This document shows positions 2,732-9,982 of a DNA stretch of 11,017 bases, one piece after another. A program made the position numbers and the translations under genes. The stretch comes from an uncultured Thermotogaceae bacterium (lineage in GTDB: Bacteria; Thermotogota; Thermotogae; MWEM01): NCBI GenBank assembly GCA_964449405.1, contig CAYUYU010000080.1, forward strand, positions 1 to 11,017. Direction: 5' to 3'. The notes below the pieces were generated by a model. It did not search any database. It was not told the origin of the DNA and saw only the letters and a program-made list of their open reading frames with translations. Position 1 is the stretch's first letter. Each line of letters begins with the position of its first letter.

Positions 2732-3742
2732 ATGAAAATCGGAGTAGCAGGAGCAACAGGGGAAGTTGGAAGAATGATGGTTCAGTTAATTGAAGAATTT
2801 GATTTACCTGTAGAAGCGTTAAGGGTGTTTGCTTCAAAACGTTCTGCAGGTTCACATATAAAGTATAAACACACGAATCTAAAAGTAGAGGAATTGACAG
2901 ATGAGGTCATGAGCGAGCAATACGATTATTTGCTTTTTTCCGCCGGTGGAGGTGTTTCGAAGCGCTTTGCACCTGCGGCAGCATCTGCTGGTAATGTAGT
3001 CATTGACAATTCTTCAGTTTTTCGAGCGGAAGATGGTATTCCTTTGGTAGTCCCTGAGATCAACGGGCATCTGCTTGAAAATTATCGTGGCATCATCGCC
3101 AACCCAAATTGTTCAACTATCCAGATGGTACTTGCCCTGAACGGCTTGAGAGATTTTGGGTTACGTGAAATCGTTGTTTCGACGTACCAGTCCATCTCCG
3201 GTGCCGGAAGAAAGGCGTTGGATGAGTATTACACCCAGATGGAATGGTTCGGAAAGGGGCAGAATGTCAGAGAAAACTTTGATAAATCTCAAAAAAAGGT
3301 CTTTGAAAAACCCATTTTTGCAAATGTGATCCCCTTGATTGGAGAGATTGATCCTGAGACCGGTATGAGCAGTGAGGATTTAAAGATGATTAACGAAACC
3401 AGAAAGATTTTTGGAGATGATTCGATTACCGTTTACCCTTTTGCGGCCAGGGTTGCCAGTGAATATGCTCATGGCGAATCGGTTCTAATCAAGCTTGAAG
3501 AAGACACAGATTTGTCTTCATTTGTTGAAGCTGTGCAGAGCACCCCAAATGTGAAATATTCAGTAGATATCGTGACTTCATCAGAGGCAGCCGGGACAGA
3601 CATTACATATGTTTCCAGAGTGAGAAAGATGGCACCGCGTGTGTTTATGATTTGGGTTGTTGCGGATAACATCAGGGTGGGTGCAGCCACAAACGCACTC
3701 AGAATACTTGCCGAACATCGGCGTATTAATCAAAGGAGATGA
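2732..3742 (+). CDS. asd: Aspartate-semialdehyde dehydrogenase.
   Basis: 337 aa. MKIGVAGATGEVGR NAD(P)-binding N-terminus. Active-site cysteine motif NPNCSTI. C-terminal ...VADNIRVGAATNA... is typical of Asd. The RBS GGAGGTG is 5 nt before the ATG at 2732. The track's upstream ATG at 2708 has no RBS. Confidence 0.9.
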   Translation: MKIGVAGATGEVGRMMVQLIEEFDLPVEALRVFASKRSAGSHIKYKHTNLKVEELTDEVMSEQYDYLLFSAGGGVSKRFAPAAASAGNVVIDNSSVFRAEDGIPLVVPEINGHLLENYRGIIANPNCSTIQMVLALNGLRDFGLREIVVSTYQSISGAGRKALDEYYTQMEWFGKGQNVRENFDKSQKKVFEKPIFANVIPLIGEIDPETGMSSEDLKMINETRKIFGDDSITVYPFAARVASEYAHGESVLIKLEEDTDLSSFVEAVQSTPNVKYSVDIVTSSEAAGTDITYVSRVRKMAPRVFMIWVVADNIRVGAATNALRILAEHRRINQRR

Positions 3743-3746
3743 TCAT

Positions 3747-4649
3747 ATGTTTCGAGGAGTAGGAACGGCTATCATAACGCCTTTTATCAATAGAATTGAA
3801 GGTTCTGTAACCAAAACAGAAGTGGATTTCAACGCATTGGAGAAATTTTGTGAATTTCAAATAGAAAACTCAGTCAGTGCCTTGGTGGTTCTGGGTACAA
3901 CAGGAGAAGCTCCCGCGATTGACCACAGCGAGAGAAGACAAATCGTAGAATCCGTAGTGCGTATTGCAAATGGATGCCTGTCCGTTATTGTTGGGACCGG
4001 AACGAATAACACACAACATTGTATCGAAAACAATAAAATGGCTGAAGAATCCGGTGCCGACGGCCTTTTGATTGTCACACCCTATTACAACAAATCAACA
4101 CAGAAAGGACTTGTCAGACATTTTACCCATATTGCTCAGGAAACAAATCTGCCCATCATTCTCTACAATGTTCCATCAAGGACATCAGTCAATCTTTTGC
4201 CTGAAACAGTCATTGAAATCTACAAGGCCAATCCAAATGTGATTGGTGTAAAAGAAGCCAGCGGTAATATCTCACAAATCGCCCGTTTGATGGCTATCAA
4301 ACCCAATGGACTAAAGGTATATTCAGGAAATGACGATCAAGCGCTTCCCATTATTGGACTTGGAGGGGATGGTTGTATTTCAGTGATATCCAACGTGCTC
4401 CCTTCTCAATTTAGTGCATTGGTAGATGAGGCCCTTTCGGGGAACTATCAGGAGGCCAGACGCTATCAAAAGATGCTTATTCCGATGATGAACGCCCTAT
4501 TCAACGAAGTCAATCCGATACCGGTGAAATATGCCTGTTTCAAAGAGGGGTATTGTGAAAATCTTTTGCGCCTTCCCCTCATAGAAGCATCCAAGGAAAC
4601 GCAGTTGCTGATCGATGTTCAATTGGAAAGACTGGGTGTTGCCATATGA
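3747..4649 (+). CDS. dapA: 4-hydroxy-tetrahydrodipicolinate synthase (dihydrodipicolinate synthase).
   Basis: 300 aa. MFRGVGTAIITPF..., GTTGE, ILYNVPSRT and the Schiff-base lysine context IGVKEASG. The RBS AAGGAG is 8 nt before the ATG at 3747. The longer track ORF from 3657 overlaps asd and lacks an RBS. Confidence 0.9.
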   Translation: MFRGVGTAIITPFINRIEGSVTKTEVDFNALEKFCEFQIENSVSALVVLGTTGEAPAIDHSERRQIVESVVRIANGCLSVIVGTGTNNTQHCIENNKMAEESGADGLLIVTPYYNKSTQKGLVRHFTHIAQETNLPIILYNVPSRTSVNLLPETVIEIYKANPNVIGVKEASGNISQIARLMAIKPNGLKVYSGNDDQALPIIGLGGDGCISVISNVLPSQFSALVDEALSGNYQEARRYQKMLIPMMNALFNEVNPIPVKYACFKEGYCENLLRLPLIEASKETQLLIDVQLERLGVAI

Positions 4650-5305
4650 AATACGGGATTATGGGTTATTCAGGTAGAATGGGAAGACTGATTCAGGAAG
4701 TCTTCAAAGAAAGAGGCCATGAGCTGGTTTATCGGTGCGATCTGAAAGAAGAATATAGAGATGATATTCCTCAAGTCATCGTGGACTTTTCCACTCCGAA
4801 AGCATTTGACCGGCTTATTGTGAAAGCTGAGGATTTCAATTGTTCACTGGTGGTGGGGACCACAGCGTTAAACGTGGAAGATATTGACACTTTGAAGGCA
4901 TACGCCAAGAAAAAAAGTGTCGTATATGCCAGAAACTTTTCAAAAGGAATCCTAATTATGAAAAATATTATTAAGGGACTCTCCGGAGAGGTTCATGACT
5001 GGGATATAGAAATCGTTGAAAAACACCATCGTAATAAAAAGGACAAACCCTCGGGAACCGCCAAAATGCTCGCTGAATCCTTTGACTTTGAAGTACCGAC
5101 ATCCAGTATTCGTGCCGGGGGAATCCCTGGAGAGCATTCTGTTCTGATCGCGGGATTAGGTGAGGTAATAGAAATCAAGCATCAGGCGATCTCTCCAAGA
5201 ACTTTTGCGGAGGGAGCATGTTTTTCTGCAGAGAGAATTATTAATATTGAAAAGGGTTTTTATACCTTTGATGAAATTTGTGCTATGGAGGAACAAGATG
5301 GATAG
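4646..5305 (+). CDS. dapB: 4-hydroxy-tetrahydrodipicolinate reductase, short form (~220 aa).
   Basis: 219 aa. MKYGIMGYSGRMGR nucleotide-binding N-terminus. Signature EIVEKHHRNKKDKPSGTA (E-x-x-E-x-HH-x-x-K-x-D-x-PSGTA). ATGA start/stop overlap with dapA suggests translational coupling. Confidence 0.85.
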   Translation: MKYGIMGYSGRMGRLIQEVFKERGHELVYRCDLKEEYRDDIPQVIVDFSTPKAFDRLIVKAEDFNCSLVVGTTALNVEDIDTLKAYAKKKSVVYARNFSKGILIMKNIIKGLSGEVHDWDIEIVEKHHRNKKDKPSGTAKMLAESFDFEVPTSSIRAGGIPGEHSVLIAGLGEVIEIKHQAISPRTFAEGACFSAERIINIEKGFYTFDEICAMEEQDG

Positions 5306-5984
5306 TTATGAACTGATCGATAAAATTGCCAATTCCCAAAAGCAGACGCCTATGAAAATCACTCTTAAAGGAAAACTGAGTGATGAAATTCTTGGTTTGA
5401 GGGGTTTTTTCGGAAACGAACAGTTTGGAATCTTGTTTTGCTCTTTGAAAGAATGGCAAAAGATAAAGAAAGAATATGCACATCTGCTCGAAGATTTTGT
5501 CATCGAATGCGATCGACGCAACTCTGCCATTCCCACGGCTGATTTGACAAAGTACAATGCCAGAATCGAACCGGGAGCCATCATTCGTGATTATGTGGAA
5601 ATAGGCGACGGGGCAGTAATCATGATGGGAGCCGTTTTGAATCTGGGCAGTGTGGTTGGCAAAGGGACGATGATTGACATGAACGTAGTTCTGGGTGGCC
5701 GGGCCCATGTTGGTGAAAACTGTCATATCGGAGCGGGGGCCGTACTTGCAGGTGTCATTGAGCCGCCCAGTGCTGAACCAGTCATTGTTGAAGATAACGT
5801 GCTGATCGGTGCGAATGCCGTTATAACAGAAGGTGTGAGAGTGGGGAAAAACGCGGTGATTGCAGCCGGATCAGTCGTTTTGAACAATGTGGAAGCCAAC
5901 TCGGTTTATGCTGGAATTCCGGCAAAAAAGACACAAGAAGTGGATGCCAAGACCAAGGGTAAAAGTCAAATGATCAAGGCATGA
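5298..5984 (+). CDS. dapH: 2,3,4,5-tetrahydropyridine-2,6-dicarboxylate N-acetyltransferase (acetylase branch of the DAP pathway).
   Basis: 228 aa. Matches Bacillus DapH almost block-for-block: DRRNSAIP, ARIEPGAIIRD, hexapeptide repeats IGDGAVIMMGAVLN...GGRAHVGENCHIGAGAVLAGVIEPPSAEPV. The RBS GGAGGAA is 5 nt before the ATG at 5298. An 8-nt overlap with the dapB stop. Confidence 0.9.
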   Translation: MDSYELIDKIANSQKQTPMKITLKGKLSDEILGLRGFFGNEQFGILFCSLKEWQKIKKEYAHLLEDFVIECDRRNSAIPTADLTKYNARIEPGAIIRDYVEIGDGAVIMMGAVLNLGSVVGKGTMIDMNVVLGGRAHVGENCHIGAGAVLAGVIEPPSAEPVIVEDNVLIGANAVITEGVRVGKNAVIAAGSVVLNNVEANSVYAGIPAKKTQEVDAKTKGKSQMIKA

Positions 5985-6216
5985 AGAAACCAGTAAAACG
6001 GGACCACCATCCTGGCAAATCATAAAAAAACTGCAAGTTCCGTATGAGACTGAATTTGATGTGGCGTCCAGGCTTTATAGCGCATTGGCGAAAGGTTCAA
6101 TAAATGTTAAAATGGTAATGATACCAGAAATCAAAATTTCTGTGTTAATTCCACATGTAAAGCTTGAAGAGGCTGTGAAATGCCTGAATGAGGGGTTTGA
6201 ATTATGTTTAGAATGA
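5974..6216 (+). pseudogene. Remnant of the C-terminal ACT regulatory domain of an aspartokinase. There is no upstream ATG. Possible internal starts are GTG at 6061 and ATG at 6112.
   Basis: Frame 1 is open from 5974 to TGA at 6214-6216. It reads ...DVASRLYSALAKGSINVKMVMIPEIKISVLIPHVKLEEAVKCLNEGFEL. This aligns with aspartokinase C-termini (GVAAKMFEALAEANINIEMISTSEIRISVLV....AVRALHEaFeL). The upstream 30 residues are degenerate. It overlaps the aminotransferase start by 13 nt. Confidence 0.45.
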
Positions 6217-7340
6217 ATCTTTACAAAGAGTTTGATTTTAAAGTGGACAGAGCAATGGGAGTAAACATTTACGATACAAATGGAAACCGTTATATAGACA
6301 CCTTTAGCGGTATCGGTGTTTTGGCGCTGGGCCATTCACATGAAGAAGTTCTTAAGGCTCAAGAACGTCAGATGAAACGTTTTGAGCATATCTCAAACTT
6401 CTTCATCCAAGATGATGCGGAAGAGATTGCCAAAGTGTTGGTTACAAAGACCGGCAGAACCGGGCAAGTTTTTTTTACAAATTCGGGCACAGAGGCTGTT
6501 GAAGCAGCTCTTAAAGCGGTTAAAAAGAAATCCCAATACACCGGCAAAAATAAGATTATAACCTTCAACAACGCCTTTCACGGCAGAACATTGGGGTCTT
6601 TATCCTTGAATGGATTCGAACGCATCAGAAAACCCTTCGAACCTCTGTTAGATAATGTGATTCGCATTCCCTTCAACAACCGGGAGAAATTCATAGAGAC
6701 AATCGATAAGCATATAACAGAAACGGTCGCCTTGTTTCTTGAACCCATTCAAGGTTCTGGTGGGGTTGTCAAATTAGATGTGGAGATAGCTGACATAATT
6801 ACCAATACTGTGAAAAAAAGGGATGTATTACTTGTGTGCGACGAAATACAAACCGGATTGGGCAGAACTGGAAAATTCTACTCCTACCAACATCTTGACT
6901 TGAATCCCGATATCATCACCTTGGGGAAGGCCATCGGTGGGGGATTGCCATTGGGAGCCACGGTATTTCTCAACGGGACCGAAACCATCTTCCAACAGGG
7001 TGACCATGGCTCCACATTCGCCCCAAATCCTATCTCAATTGCCGGTGGAAAAGTGGTTGTTAACAAAATATCAGAAATTTTGGATGATATCGAAGAAAAA
7101 GGTGTTTATTTTGTTTCAAAGATAAAACAATCCGAAAAGATTCAAGAAATCCGACAAACCGGTCTAATGATTGGTATCACATTAACAGAGCCTTATCCGG
7201 AACTAAGAGTAAAAGCACAAGAAAAGGGGTTGTTGATTAACGTCCTTAACGATAGGATTATTCGCCTGCTGCCGGCTTTGAATATTGAATATTTTGAAAT
7301 GGATGAGATGGCTGCGATTTTGAATGAGCTTTTGGGGTAG
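6204..7340 (+). CDS. Class-III PLP-dependent aminotransferase (acetylornithine / N-acyl-diaminopimelate aminotransferase, ArgD/DapC type).
   Basis: 378 aa. N-terminal ...IYDTNGNRYIDTFSGIGVLALGHSHEEV..., DEIQTGLGRTG, and PLP-lysine context ITLGKAIGGGLP. The RBS GAGGGG is 8 nt before the ATG at 6204. Its position after dapH suggests an N-acetyl-aminoketopimelate aminotransferase role, but ArgD cannot be excluded. Confidence 0.85.
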   Translation: MFRMNLYKEFDFKVDRAMGVNIYDTNGNRYIDTFSGIGVLALGHSHEEVLKAQERQMKRFEHISNFFIQDDAEEIAKVLVTKTGRTGQVFFTNSGTEAVEAALKAVKKKSQYTGKNKIITFNNAFHGRTLGSLSLNGFERIRKPFEPLLDNVIRIPFNNREKFIETIDKHITETVALFLEPIQGSGGVVKLDVEIADIITNTVKKRDVLLVCDEIQTGLGRTGKFYSYQHLDLNPDIITLGKAIGGGLPLGATVFLNGTETIFQQGDHGSTFAPNPISIAGGKVVVNKISEILDDIEEKGVYFVSKIKQSEKIQEIRQTGLMIGITLTEPYPELRVKAQEKGLLINVLNDRIIRLLPALNIEYFEMDEMAAILNELLG

Positions 7341-7382: not shown

Positions 7383-8633
7383 TTAGAACTCCGCATGATA
7401 GACAGGTTTTTCACATTTGGTTAGCATTTCTGATGCCTTTTTCATTAAAGCATCATCTGAACACTCGGCTAATCCGTAGGTGACAAGTTTTTTCATAGGT
7501 ACGGCACCGAACAGCATAGATGAAAAATCGGCCATAGAGAGTTTTACTTTCAGATTTTCTTTTTCTTCACTGCTGGAGATATCCGTTTCGGTTATTTTCA
7601 ATTTGATCTGTTGTTGCTCTTTTAAGAAAGGTTCCTTGATTTCAAACAGACAAACAATGCCGTCATCTTGCTTGTTTGTTTCTGAAGATAATTGCTCCAC
7701 AAAGCGTTTGGTATCAAGAACTCTGAACATCAGACCGGTGCTGACATATGCCATGGAGTGATTGACGTGTGGGAAGAGAGCTTTGGTGTCATCACCAGGG
7801 TTATCAAACTGTTGATAGAAGGTGTCATCTTGTGAATAGAAGCGAATATTTTCAAACTGATCGGCCTGATTTCTCAAAAATCCCATAAGAGCTTTTCTGC
7901 CGTTTGTACTAAGGGTGATAAATTCGTGAACTTTTAGATCATGTCTGAGAAAATTATCTTCAGAGAGTTTCAATGGGGTGCAAATAGCATAAGCGAAAAG
8001 TTTTCCTTTTTCTCTATATCCAACAACAATATTTGAATGATTGTTCAGCATGGTTTTTGGCCATTGGGGAGGGCGTTTAATTTCTCCGTTTGTTCTTTTA
8101 AAGTGTTCATTGTAGCATATTGCGATATCCTTAATGTTATTTTCATCTAAAAAAATTACCTTTTTGGCCAACTCGTACCTTTTAATCCTATCAGTTGGGA
8201 TACGATATTTGTAAAAGGGGGTTAGCACTCCATAACCCATTTTTTTATAAAAGTCGACCCTGAAAGGATGTAATATTGAGCTGTAAATGCCTCGGTCCAT
8301 AAACCATTGAAGGCCAAATTGGATCATATCCCTGCAGATGTGTCTTTTTTTATATATCAGATCAACACCAACACCACCGATACCGCCTGTTCTGATTTCT
8401 TGCCCTCTGAAATTGATTAAAAAGTCGTAGAGAATCATGGTGCCCATCAACTTTTGGTCCTGGGAGTATGCTCCGATGGGAGTGACTGTGTCTTTGGCAA
8501 AGAAATTTTTATAACGCTCGATGTTTTTTTCCGCTTCTTGGGGTGTTGTTGAAAATGCTGGATAAACTCGATTGCGGATATTGAGAAAGTCGATCGTCTC
8601 ATTTTCTTGGAGTTTTCTGAAATTCAAGTTCAT
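7383..8633 (-). CDS. Eis-like GNAT N-acetyltransferase with a C-terminal SCP2-like domain.
   Basis: 416 aa from the ATG at 8633 (RBS AGGAGGA, 6-nt spacer). The track's longer start at 8678 would read through the RBS itself. GNAT motif-A-like RTGGIGGVGVDLIYKKRHICRDMIQ. About 400 aa with a tandem-GNAT plus SCP2 architecture. C-terminal ...FGAVPMKKLVTYGLAECSDDA resembles the Eis SCP2 tail. Confidence 0.55.
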   Translation of the reverse strand: MNLNFRKLQENETIDFLNIRNRVYPAFSTTPQEAEKNIERYKNFFAKDTVTPIGAYSQDQKLMGTMILYDFLINFRGQEIRTGGIGGVGVDLIYKKRHICRDMIQFGLQWFMDRGIYSSILHPFRVDFYKKMGYGVLTPFYKYRIPTDRIKRYELAKKVIFLDENNIKDIAICYNEHFKRTNGEIKRPPQWPKTMLNNHSNIVVGYREKGKLFAYAICTPLKLSEDNFLRHDLKVHEFITLSTNGRKALMGFLRNQADQFENIRFYSQDDTFYQQFDNPGDDTKALFPHVNHSMAYVSTGLMFRVLDTKRFVEQLSSETNKQDDGIVCLFEIKEPFLKEQQQIKLKITETDISSSEEKENLKVKLSMADFSSMLFGAVPMKKLVTYGLAECSDDALMKKASEMLTKCEKPVYHAEF

Positions 8634-8695
8634 TTTTGGTCCTCCTACTTTTGGGTTTTGAAAGATTATCAAGTTCACTTTGTTATTAGGGCATT

Positions 8696-8817: not shown

Positions 8818-9609
8818 TTATTCCAGTACAACACAAGCTTCAGGAGCGTTAACTCTGAAGGTGAAGGATTCGATAAAGAAGAACACCAGTTCATTCCCTT
8901 CTTGGTGCGAATAGCCTACAGAAACATCTTGACCAACGATGAATTCAAAGTCCTCACTGTTTACAGGCAGAATAAGTCCTTTGTCTTCCAAATCAGGGGC
9001 AAATATAATGCTTCCTTCAAGCAAGTTTTCCAATCTTCTTTTTGCCGGATACCCTTTTTCATTTGGTTTGTACAGTAGTGAACGCAGTTTATCGCCTACA
9101 ATCAGGTTGAATGGACCTTCAATACCCTGGTCTTCAAGTACTTTTACTCCTTCTGCTACGGGTGTAACTAAATCATCGTCAACTTTAATGTGATCATTTT
9201 CAGATATGGGTAAAATCCCTTTGATGTTTGCATGAGATAAACCGTTAAAAATCGCCCGATTTTCTGCTTTGGCTATTTTTTCTGCAGCCTCTATCAAAGA
9301 ATCCGTTTCCACATCTTCAGCACCTCTTACGAGAGATTCAATCTCATCCATTTTTAAATTAAAAGGCACTTCAATTTCAACCATTGGCAATACCTGTCTT
9401 TTTGAATATTTAACCCCTTCAAGTGGTGTATCCTCGATGGGGATTTTTCTACCTGTATTCACCGCTGCAAAATCCATACCCTTTGGTCCAACAAAATCAA
9501 CAACTTTCCTTGCGGTTAGTTTCAGTTTGAGTATTCGTCTTGCCTCTTCATCTATAAAATCCCATGCTTGCTGGGAGATTGGGGCAATATGTCTTTTAAG
9601 ATTAGCCAT
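8818..9609 (-). CDS. Family-1 encapsulin nanocompartment shell protein (HK97-fold, linocin M18-like).
   Basis: 263 aa. MANLKRHIAPISQQAWDFIDEEARRILKLKLTARKVVDFVGPKGMDFAAV... and C-terminal ...FTFRVNAPEACVVLE align throughout with T. maritima encapsulin ([25 protein letters not shown]...FTFQVVNPEALILL). The start is assigned to the second ATG (9609), which has RBS GGAGG at 7-nt spacing. The track's ATG at 9615 is 1 nt from the RBS. Confidence 0.9.
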   Translation of the reverse strand: MANLKRHIAPISQQAWDFIDEEARRILKLKLTARKVVDFVGPKGMDFAAVNTGRKIPIEDTPLEGVKYSKRQVLPMVEIEVPFNLKMDEIESLVRGAEDVETDSLIEAAEKIAKAENRAIFNGLSHANIKGILPISENDHIKVDDDLVTPVAEGVKVLEDQGIEGPFNLIVGDKLRSLLYKPNEKGYPAKRRLENLLEGSIIFAPDLEDKGLILPVNSEDFEFIVGQDVSVGYSHQEGNELVFFFIESFTFRVNAPEACVVLE

Positions 9610-9622
9610 CTGCATTCCTCCT

Positions 9623-9982
9623 TTATTGTAACTTTTTACCCTTAATACCTAATGATTCGTCTGAAGAGCTATTGATCGAGCCGTTTGCTTCTTCCGAACC
9701 GCCTTCTTCTAAAGTTGTGATATCCCCTTCTGTGAAAAAGAATTCACGCATGTTCTCATCCCAAACCGGATTTCTTCTTCTTAACCACTCAAGACCCATG
9801 CAGGCATGTTCTATTTCCTCATCTCGGTTATGTTCAACGATTGCCTTTACACTGGGGTCACTTGTTGCTGCAGCTCTCTGATTATACCAGTCAATCGCTT
9901 CCAGTTCTTCTATAACGCTTTTGATGATTCTGTGATATTCCTTTGCTTCCTCCGGTAAATTGTCCTCATGAAACTCACTCAT
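9623..9982 (-). CDS. Encapsulated ferritin-like protein (EncFtn) cargo with a C-terminal targeting peptide.
   Basis: 119 aa. ...SVIEELEAIDWYNQRAAATSDPSVKAIVEHNRDEEIEHACMGLEWLRRRNPVWDE... matches the EncFtn fold motifs (EELEA.DWY.QR, EHNRDEE.EH). C-terminal ...SSDESLGIKGKKLQ resembles the encapsulin cargo-loading peptide (SLGIGxLK). RBS GGAGGAG is 7 nt before the ATG at 9982. It is 13 nt upstream of the shell gene. Confidence 0.85.
   Translation of the reverse strand: MSEFHEDNLPEEAKEYHRIIKSVIEELEAIDWYNQRAAATSDPSVKAIVEHNRDEEIEHACMGLEWLRRRNPVWDENMREFFFTEGDITTLEEGGSEEANGSINSSSDESLGIKGKKLQ

Follow-up and report, generated by a model that had tools for sequence, protein, structure and literature searches.

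The lysine operon of the Thermotogae has been described as conserved, with the gene order dapB-dapD(H)-lysC-aminotransferase in all cultured members (PMC5584792, Table 1). Loss or relocation of lysC, the aspartokinase gene, from operons controlled by a lysine riboswitch was documented in Firmicutes (PMC5584792), and the genes of the diaminopimelate (DAP) pathway are kept in these lysC-less operons. No description of lysC loss from this operon in Thermotogae was found. The Thermotogota lysC product is monofunctional, with two C-terminal ACT domains. In Bacillus subtilis and Corynebacterium glutamicum, the beta subunits of LysC are made from internal starts; aspartokinase beta subunits (PDB 2dtj, 2dt9, 3ab4_B) are conserved C-terminal pieces of 160-180 aa, with two complete ACT domains and their own ribosome-binding site. 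Here, we describe an 11,017-nt stretch of contig CAYUYU010000080.1 from an uncultured Thermotogaceae bacterium (GCA_964449405.1), referred to as the window throughout, whose numbering is used for all coordinates unless a locus is named. Its lysine operon is a derived, lysC-less version, in which the riboswitch and five genes are intact and lysC is present as a relic only. The segment between dapH and the aminotransferase gene is very probably what remains of a lysC deleted from the Thermotogota lysine operon, and not a new small protein. The feature is of an ordinary kind, a gene relic.

The window operon resembles the lysC-less operons of Firmicutes in keeping the DAP-pathway genes, but it still has a visible physical scar of the loss. 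The relic occupies the same slot as Thermotogota lysC and has the same 13-nt overlap onto the following gene as in close relatives, whereas residues 1-344 are absent and conserved residues are replaced. The relic is, like the beta subunits, a C-terminal ACT piece and matches these chains; unlike them, it comprises at most 57 residues of one domain, has no ribosome-binding site and shows neutral evolution.

The lysine operon and the lysC slot

The plus strand of the window carries a lysine-biosynthesis operon, in which the following features are arranged around a gap of 219 nt:

2336-2507, + strand: lysine riboswitch aptamer at the operon head (Rfam RF00168, E=8.5e-25; score 95.5 bits, gathering score 30)
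2732-3742, + strand: asd, aspartate-semialdehyde dehydrogenase (Pfam Semialdhyde_dh and Semialdhyde_dhC; strong Shine-Dalgarno before 2732, alternative ATG at 2708; ratio of non-synonymous to synonymous substitution rates, dN/dS, 0.05-0.07 against relatives)
3747-4649, + strand: dapA (Pfam DHDPS, E=1.5e-83; gene called in locus L044; dN/dS 0.03-0.08)
4646-5305, + strand: dapB (Pfam DapB_N and DapB_C; proportion of non-synonymous differences, pN, 0.05 against a proportion of synonymous differences, pS, of ~0.75)
5298-5984, + strand: dapH, tetrahydrodipicolinate N-acetyltransferase (NCBIfam TIGR03532; score 305.7 bits, cut-off 231.75)
6204-7340, + strand: class-III (ArgD-like) aminotransferase, the final operon gene (Pfam Aminotran_3, E=2.5e-92; dN/dS 0.04-0.05)

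The differences between the flanking operon genes and their orthologues are almost all synonymous (pS 0.6-0.75, dN/dS 0.02-0.08), and the rest of the operon is intact and under strong purifying selection. The aminotransferase is ArgD-like, but its 376.8 bits fall short of the 410 required for the argD subfamily; it may act as N-acetyl-diaminopimelate aminotransferase in the acetylase branch, or it may serve both the arginine and the lysine pathways.

The gap extends from the dapH TGA (5982-5984) to the aminotransferase ATG (6204), and a search of the plus strand between the two genes for a terminator-like site found none. Frame 1, preceded by a stop at 5971-5973, is open from 5974 to the TGA at 6214-6216 and overlaps the aminotransferase start by 13 nt; its canonical in-frame starts are GTG 6061 and ATG 6112 only. 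A first-pass annotation of this DNA, made by a model from the letters alone, had given the same gap size, frame-1 span, overlap and internal starts, and all of these coordinates were confirmed. It had also read the frame as the C-terminus of an aspartokinase, and pointed to the asd-dapG-dapA order of Bacillus as the template and to synteny with relatives as a check. The Bacillus template proved to be the wrong model, the ancestral order of the phylum being dapB-dapH(dapD)-lysC-aminotransferase.

Related loci (designated by L numbers) were fetched via the aminotransferase from genomes and metagenomes and belong to Thermotogota or to Thermotogaceae metagenome-assembled genomes (MAGs). A readable dapH-aminotransferase interval was available in 14 intact loci (L002-L004, L006-L008, L019-L024, L026 and L040), from genomes and metagenomes, and in 14/14 of them it holds a lysC of ~400 aa. 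The L002 gene scores above the NCBIfam equivalog cut-off for aspartate kinase (481.7 bits against 376). In close relatives lysC ends in EEF[DE]LCSE followed by the stop codon, with the 13-nt overlap onto the aminotransferase start that is also seen in the window. The dapH-lysC adjacency recurs in three further, more distant genomes. Given this ancestral order of the phylum, the hole in the window operon, and with it the relic, sits exactly in the slot of lysC. Genomes and metagenomes were also scanned for nearer relatives, by which the deletion might be dated or an intermediate seen, and none above 88-89% aminotransferase identity was found. In a metagenome contig of another lineage (L025:493-2450), a 69%-identical aminotransferase gene directly follows asd after a 27-nt gap, and dapA, dapB, dapH and lysC do not lie between them.

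Aspartokinase identity of the gap sequence

With 40.2 bits, the 80-aa frame-1 translation exceeds the Pfam cut-off of 27 for ACT_9 (E=2.9e-10), and the match covers profile positions 13-61 of 61. It also matches ten NCBIfam aspartate-kinase models, each in the last ~50 positions. The best of these is NF005155 (E=2.3e-10), matched at model positions 351-403 of 407; the score is 40 bits, where the cut-off for the whole protein is 346. Within Pfam the matches are to ACT_9 and ACT_7 only, and the amino-acid kinase domain PF00696, which the intact aspartokinases of relatives have together with ACT domains, is not matched. Among aspartokinases of known structure, the translation matches the ACT domains of PDB 3l76 (E=3.8e-10) and 5yei (E=8.7e-9). 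BLASTP against the intact L002 aspartokinase gave E=8e-23 with an alignment extending to the C-terminal residue 401, and identity to residues 347-397 of the nearest intact orthologue is 37/51 (73%, counted manually on the alignment). The similarity of the gap segment to aspartokinase C-termini is therefore far beyond chance, and the match claimed in the first-pass annotation was upheld by the Pfam, NCBIfam, PDB and BLASTP searches. Of the features that define a functional aspartate kinase (NF005154/NF005155, TIGR00657), the segment has the genomic position, and it has neither the kinase domain nor the family score.

Anatomy of the deletion scar

Three segments make up the scar and its left margin:

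5894-5995, + strand: divergent patch at the dapH 3' end, with 13 differences from both sister strains, ending exactly at the deletion junction
5996-6041, + strand: junction filler of 46 nt, in place of 1.03-1.06 kb of intact relatives
6042-6216, + strand: lysC relic, codons 345-401 and the stop codon, covering part of the second ACT domain (homologous at the nucleotide level to the lysC genes of 10 close relatives)

Nucleotide homology to the lysC of relatives begins at ~6042 (GTATGAGA) and runs to 6216. All intact genes have one more A between 6049 and 6050, and their GAGAAC is GAGAC in the window. Of 401 codons 344 are lost, and with them the amino-acid-kinase domain in full, ACT1 and the beginning of ACT2.

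The deletion junction is identical in the window and in two further assemblies, L001 (GCA_046542265.1) and L044 (GCA_048624705.1), which are 99.65 and 99.28% identical to the window, respectively. Strain-level differences flank the junction on both sides. The deletion is real and fixed within the species. The filler is also shared, being identical in L001 and different at one position in L044.

The first-pass annotation had described the N-proximal part of the aspartokinase match, at 5985-6041, as degenerate. No aspartokinase origin was detectable for this part, in which 5985-5995 is the dapH end as in relatives and 5996-6041 gave no significant alignment. Local alignment of the filler with the whole lysC of five relatives was not significant (p=0.07-0.56 against shuffles), nor was semi-global alignment with the dapH-lysC spacers and first lysC codons significant overall (p=0.04-0.97); the small filler pieces that MAFFT scatters over lysC are at chance level. 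The filler may be the old dapH-lysC spacer together with the first lysC codons. L044 reads ATG-CAA-GTT (M-Q-V) at 6031 and the lysC of L006 starts with M-Q-V, a match that lacks statistical support. A derivation of the filler peptide LQVPYE from the N-terminal VQKYGG, with the L044 ATG at 6031 as the original lysC start, was likewise considered and set aside as a hint without statistical support.

The patch at 5894-5995 is an observation apart. Its 13 differences from L001 and L044 stand against 0.4% elsewhere, and the L001 contig starts at its left edge. Within it the window dapH is 3 codons short: TGA is found at 5982-5984, where L001 and L044 read TTA and stop at 5993-5995. This premature stop removes the conserved LRN tail. 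The sister allele of the patch is closer to every relative than is the window allele, which hence was not imported from any known lineage.

Coding capacity of the relic

Constraint was assessed at the nucleotide sites that are invariant in ten intact relatives (n=102). The window has changed at 14 of them, namely 3/37 first, 9/47 second and 2/18 third codon positions, or 0.08, 0.19 and 0.11 changes per invariant site. Intact genes under the same treatment showed 0-1 changes, and 7 in the most divergent one. At second positions, the 9/47 of the relic compare with 2/284 in pooled controls of six non-redundant comparators (p=5e-7). Neutral drift would be expected to affect the three codon positions about equally, as is seen here, and the relic evolves without protein constraint. 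Consistently, the relic has a pN of 0.16-0.185, and comparisons among close intact relatives over the same 51 codons give 0.03-0.07. Replacements affect nine of 38 invariant residues, among them the Gly before VASR, which is Asp in the window, and the TTSE motif, common to all aspartokinases examined, which reads MIPE. Within the species, both differences found in the relic (6031 and 6156; 2/2) are non-synonymous, compared with 4 non-synonymous and 14 synonymous differences in the flanking genes (Fisher p=0.08).

Translation signals are lacking in the relic as well. The open reading frame (ORF) that would be translated from it is as follows:

6061-6216, + strand: ORF with GTG start, 51 aa (open reading frame only; a 61-aa ORF in L044 via ATG 6031)

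No Shine-Dalgarno was found before the candidate starts, where the pairing energy lies between -1.5 and -3.8 kcal/mol; the background of the window is -2.7, and the real operon genes reach -7.0 to -13.1 kcal/mol. The in-frame ATG at 6031 is present in L044, and the window and L001 have CTG there (6031-6033). The ACT domain itself is incomplete, as the first strand and the glycine loop are missing (ACT_9 is matched from position 13). A stand-alone ACT protein or beta subunit would have a complete domain, a conserved start with a ribosome-binding site and purifying selection, and none of these was found. What was found is the set of properties of a gene relic: positional homology to a functional gene, loss of essential parts together with a one-base deletion, and relaxed constraint.

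In GenBank, MFP4461962.1 (L001:176-331, 51 aa) and MFW6263307.1 (L044:3247-3432, 61 aa) are annotated as 'ACT domain-containing protein', and these two MAG entries were the only short relic homologues among 5.8 billion proteins. Two further frames touch the segment. An antisense ORF at 6075-6335 was rejected, since stops interrupt it in L003, L004 and L021. A four-codon ORF in frame 2 (ATG-TTA-AAA-TGG-TAA, 6104-6118), with GAAAGG 8 nt upstream, lies inside a block of conserved nucleotides (6100-6152); it is kept in ten of ten close relatives because the nucleotides are conserved, and is probably meaningless.

Explanations of the locus

The history that we favour is one of deletion. The ancestor would have carried the riboswitch operon asd-dapA-dapB-dapH-lysC-aminotransferase, and a deletion of ~1 kb, from just past the dapH stop to lysC codon 344, would have left behind lysC codons 345-401 (~3/4 of the second ACT domain), the stop codon and, inside this piece, the ribosome-binding site of the aminotransferase gene. 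The leftover would since have been drifting as non-coding DNA that is transcribed as a dapH-aminotransferase spacer only and has neither an enzymatic nor a regulatory protein function. This corresponds to one of two readings offered by the first-pass annotation, the relic of an aspartokinase gene left after deletion, which the synteny, the common junction and the neutral substitution pattern bear out. The deletion is clearly older than the 0.4-0.7% divergence of the three strains. As a rough estimate, it may fall in the later part of the lineage branch (~0.14 changes per site and saturated synonymous divergence).

Several observations weigh against this history. The frame has stayed open over 80 codons, and 6050-6216 is free of indels; by our own estimate, neither is improbable enough at ~14% neutral divergence to signal selection. 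The nucleotide identity of the relic to L002, 78%, is not below that of the flanking genes, which implies either a late deletion on the lineage branch or constraint on part of the relic at the nucleotide level. Moreover, the retained stretch coincides with a zone of synonymous conservation in intact relatives, and a hairpin is kept in the window against the odds (see below), so that 'pure junk' is probably too strong a term for 6085-6216.

The other reading of the first-pass annotation was a retained mini ACT protein. In this case a half-ACT peptide, of 51 aa from GTG 6061, 34 aa from ATG 6112 or 61 aa from ATG 6031 in L044, would act like an aspartokinase beta subunit or as a regulator of another ACT enzyme. 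Frame 1 is open, the NCBI pipeline labels the product as an ACT domain-containing protein in both public MAGs, and the beta subunits made from internal starts provide a precedent. However, the peptide keeps profile positions 13-61 of one domain, and the beta subunits have two complete ones; second codon positions of the relic have changed as often as third ones, and the invariant TTSE and Gly are replaced. The candidate starts are without a Shine-Dalgarno and not conserved, ATG 6031 being present in one strain and CTG in two, both intraspecific differences alter an amino acid, and no homologous short protein occurs in 5.8 billion sequences apart from the two MAG entries. A retained micro-protein is very unlikely, and the relic is presumably not translated into anything useful. 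Even a shade less credible is the particular form in which the half-ACT micro-protein, with 61 aa from ATG 6031 in strains of the L044 type and 51 aa from GTG 6061 in the others, would dock on an aspartokinase that the organism still has, or on a different ACT enzyme, by way of the ACT domains and alter feedback regulation. As to the DNA itself, lysC might actually be intact and the junction a mis-join of metagenome assembly or binning: all three sources appear to be metagenome assemblies, and the L001 contig begins at the edge of the odd divergent patch adjoining the junction. Yet three independently deposited assemblies have the same junction and filler with strain differences on either side, and the relic has ~14% lineage-specific divergence that occurs in no intact relative, and such an artefact is very unlikely, the least probable of these explanations. 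A second or relocated aspartokinase of the species was sought with the L002 lysC as query; the search returned no NCBI-sourced orthologue in the expected identity range, and its 87%-identical matches were without a contig record. Three NCBI-only matches came from other assemblies, and 3/3 of them had dapH-lysC synteny.

A candidate control region in the lysC 3' end

The surviving part of lysC coincides with a stretch of unusual conservation in the intact genes of relatives. Synonymous sites being otherwise saturated, conservation was measured by codon identity at degenerate codons whose amino acid is invariant. In lysC codons 351-396 an identical codon is used in all nine genomes at 18/35 such codons, against 21/214 in the rest of the gene (p=5e-8). 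The same count gave 3/15 for the first 20 codons of the aminotransferase gene, 3/12 for the last 20 of dapH and 4/9 for the last 20 of dapB. The synonymous conservation is local to the lysC 3' end. The stretch, the last ~45 codons of lysC, corresponds to L002:4270-4408 and L003:9875-10013 in relatives and to 6085-6216 in the window, where the conserved block is 6100-6152. The following elements were recognised in the stretch:

6085-6113, + strand: promoter-like site TTGGCG-17-TAAAAT with TG upstream (putative; a function in transcription is only suggested)
6120-6146, + strand: putative hairpin of 11 base pairs
6190-6195, + strand: aminotransferase Shine-Dalgarno GAGGGG, inside the relic (-7.7 kcal/mol against the anti-Shine-Dalgarno; GAGGAG in all relatives)

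The promoter hexamers are conserved in 10 relatives, synonymous sites included (TTGGCR-17-TAAAAT), and the stretch from -35 to -10 has 0/22 invariant sites changed in the window, against 5/18 just upstream. The hairpin keeps 11/11 pairs despite changes at 9/38 bases, including a G-C to A-U double change. In simulations, at least 11 pairs were kept with P=0.0015-0.003 and at least 10 with P=0.02-0.08. Its cells are paired in 78% of cases, against at most 51% for slid partners, and its covariation exceeds that of 497/500 shuffles.

These elements raise the possibility that the lysC 3' end is an expression module for the aminotransferase gene, with an internal sigma-70-type promoter, a stabilising hairpin at the predicted 5' end of its transcript and the Shine-Dalgarno, such that only deletions sparing the module were viable. 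This idea refines the relic reading and does not exclude it. It draws on the strong local synonymous conservation in codons 351-396, on the unchanged -35 to -10 stretch and on the intact hairpin. On the other side, the promoter scan found one site where about one is expected by chance in shuffled sequence, and the probability of 0/22 changes is only ~0.05. The hairpin was defined post hoc, after the sequences had been viewed, and the codons of the universal TSEIKIS motif account for part of it, as 6-8 of the 11 pairs are present in distant aspartokinases; a conserved extended RNA structure is weakly supported by RNAalifold (-12.95 kcal/mol), the fold of the window has z=-1.6, and an Rfam search of the relic and the intact lysC 3' end gave no family at E up to 1. 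We therefore regard the complete module as tentative, a possibility somewhat short of even chances. For the relic as a whole, the 3' ~130 nt would persist through cis-acting signals that express the aminotransferase; the Shine-Dalgarno among them is directly readable, and the internal promoter and 5' hairpin are only suggested.

Neighbouring genes in the window

The operon is followed by three genes convergent with it:

7383-8678, - strand: Eis-like GNAT acetyltransferase with an SCP2 domain
8818-9615, - strand: encapsulin shell protein
9623-9982, - strand: EncFtn cargo protein

Upstream of the operon, a 426-aa ORF on the minus strand (764-2044) is preceded by a strong Shine-Dalgarno and encodes a signal peptide of the lipoprotein type (MKRIRPAIIVIMIILLSFILLSC); searches of Pfam, NCBIfam, PHROGs and PDB sequences gave no match to it. 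Its motifs FIAHG...ETCHGG recall the His/Cys dyad of clan-CD peptidases. The segment 832-2243 is not at this place in L003 and L007 and is, relative to close relatives, an insertion between the upstream genes and the lysine riboswitch; L006 has a 66%-identical stretch.

Significance

The entries MFP4461962.1 and MFW6263307.1 almost certainly represent pieces of a deleted gene, and both should carry a pseudogene flag. If a half-ACT micro-protein did dock as described above, against our expectation, a gene fragment would have given rise to a regulatory peptide. The expression module, if confirmed, would be a case of a control region of a downstream gene embedded in coding sequence and would explain the deletion endpoint, a result of modest importance. 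For the organism, the finding means that one Thermotogota species lost the phylum's only aspartokinase under lysine-riboswitch control while the rest of the DAP pathway was kept under strong selection. With the riboswitch-controlled lysC lost and the pathway kept, entry into lysine biosynthesis must depend on another aspartokinase, and aspartyl phosphate would be supplied by such an enzyme encoded elsewhere in the genome. Thermotoga maritima has a second, bifunctional aspartokinase-homoserine dehydrogenase, which makes a substitute plausible in the species of the window.

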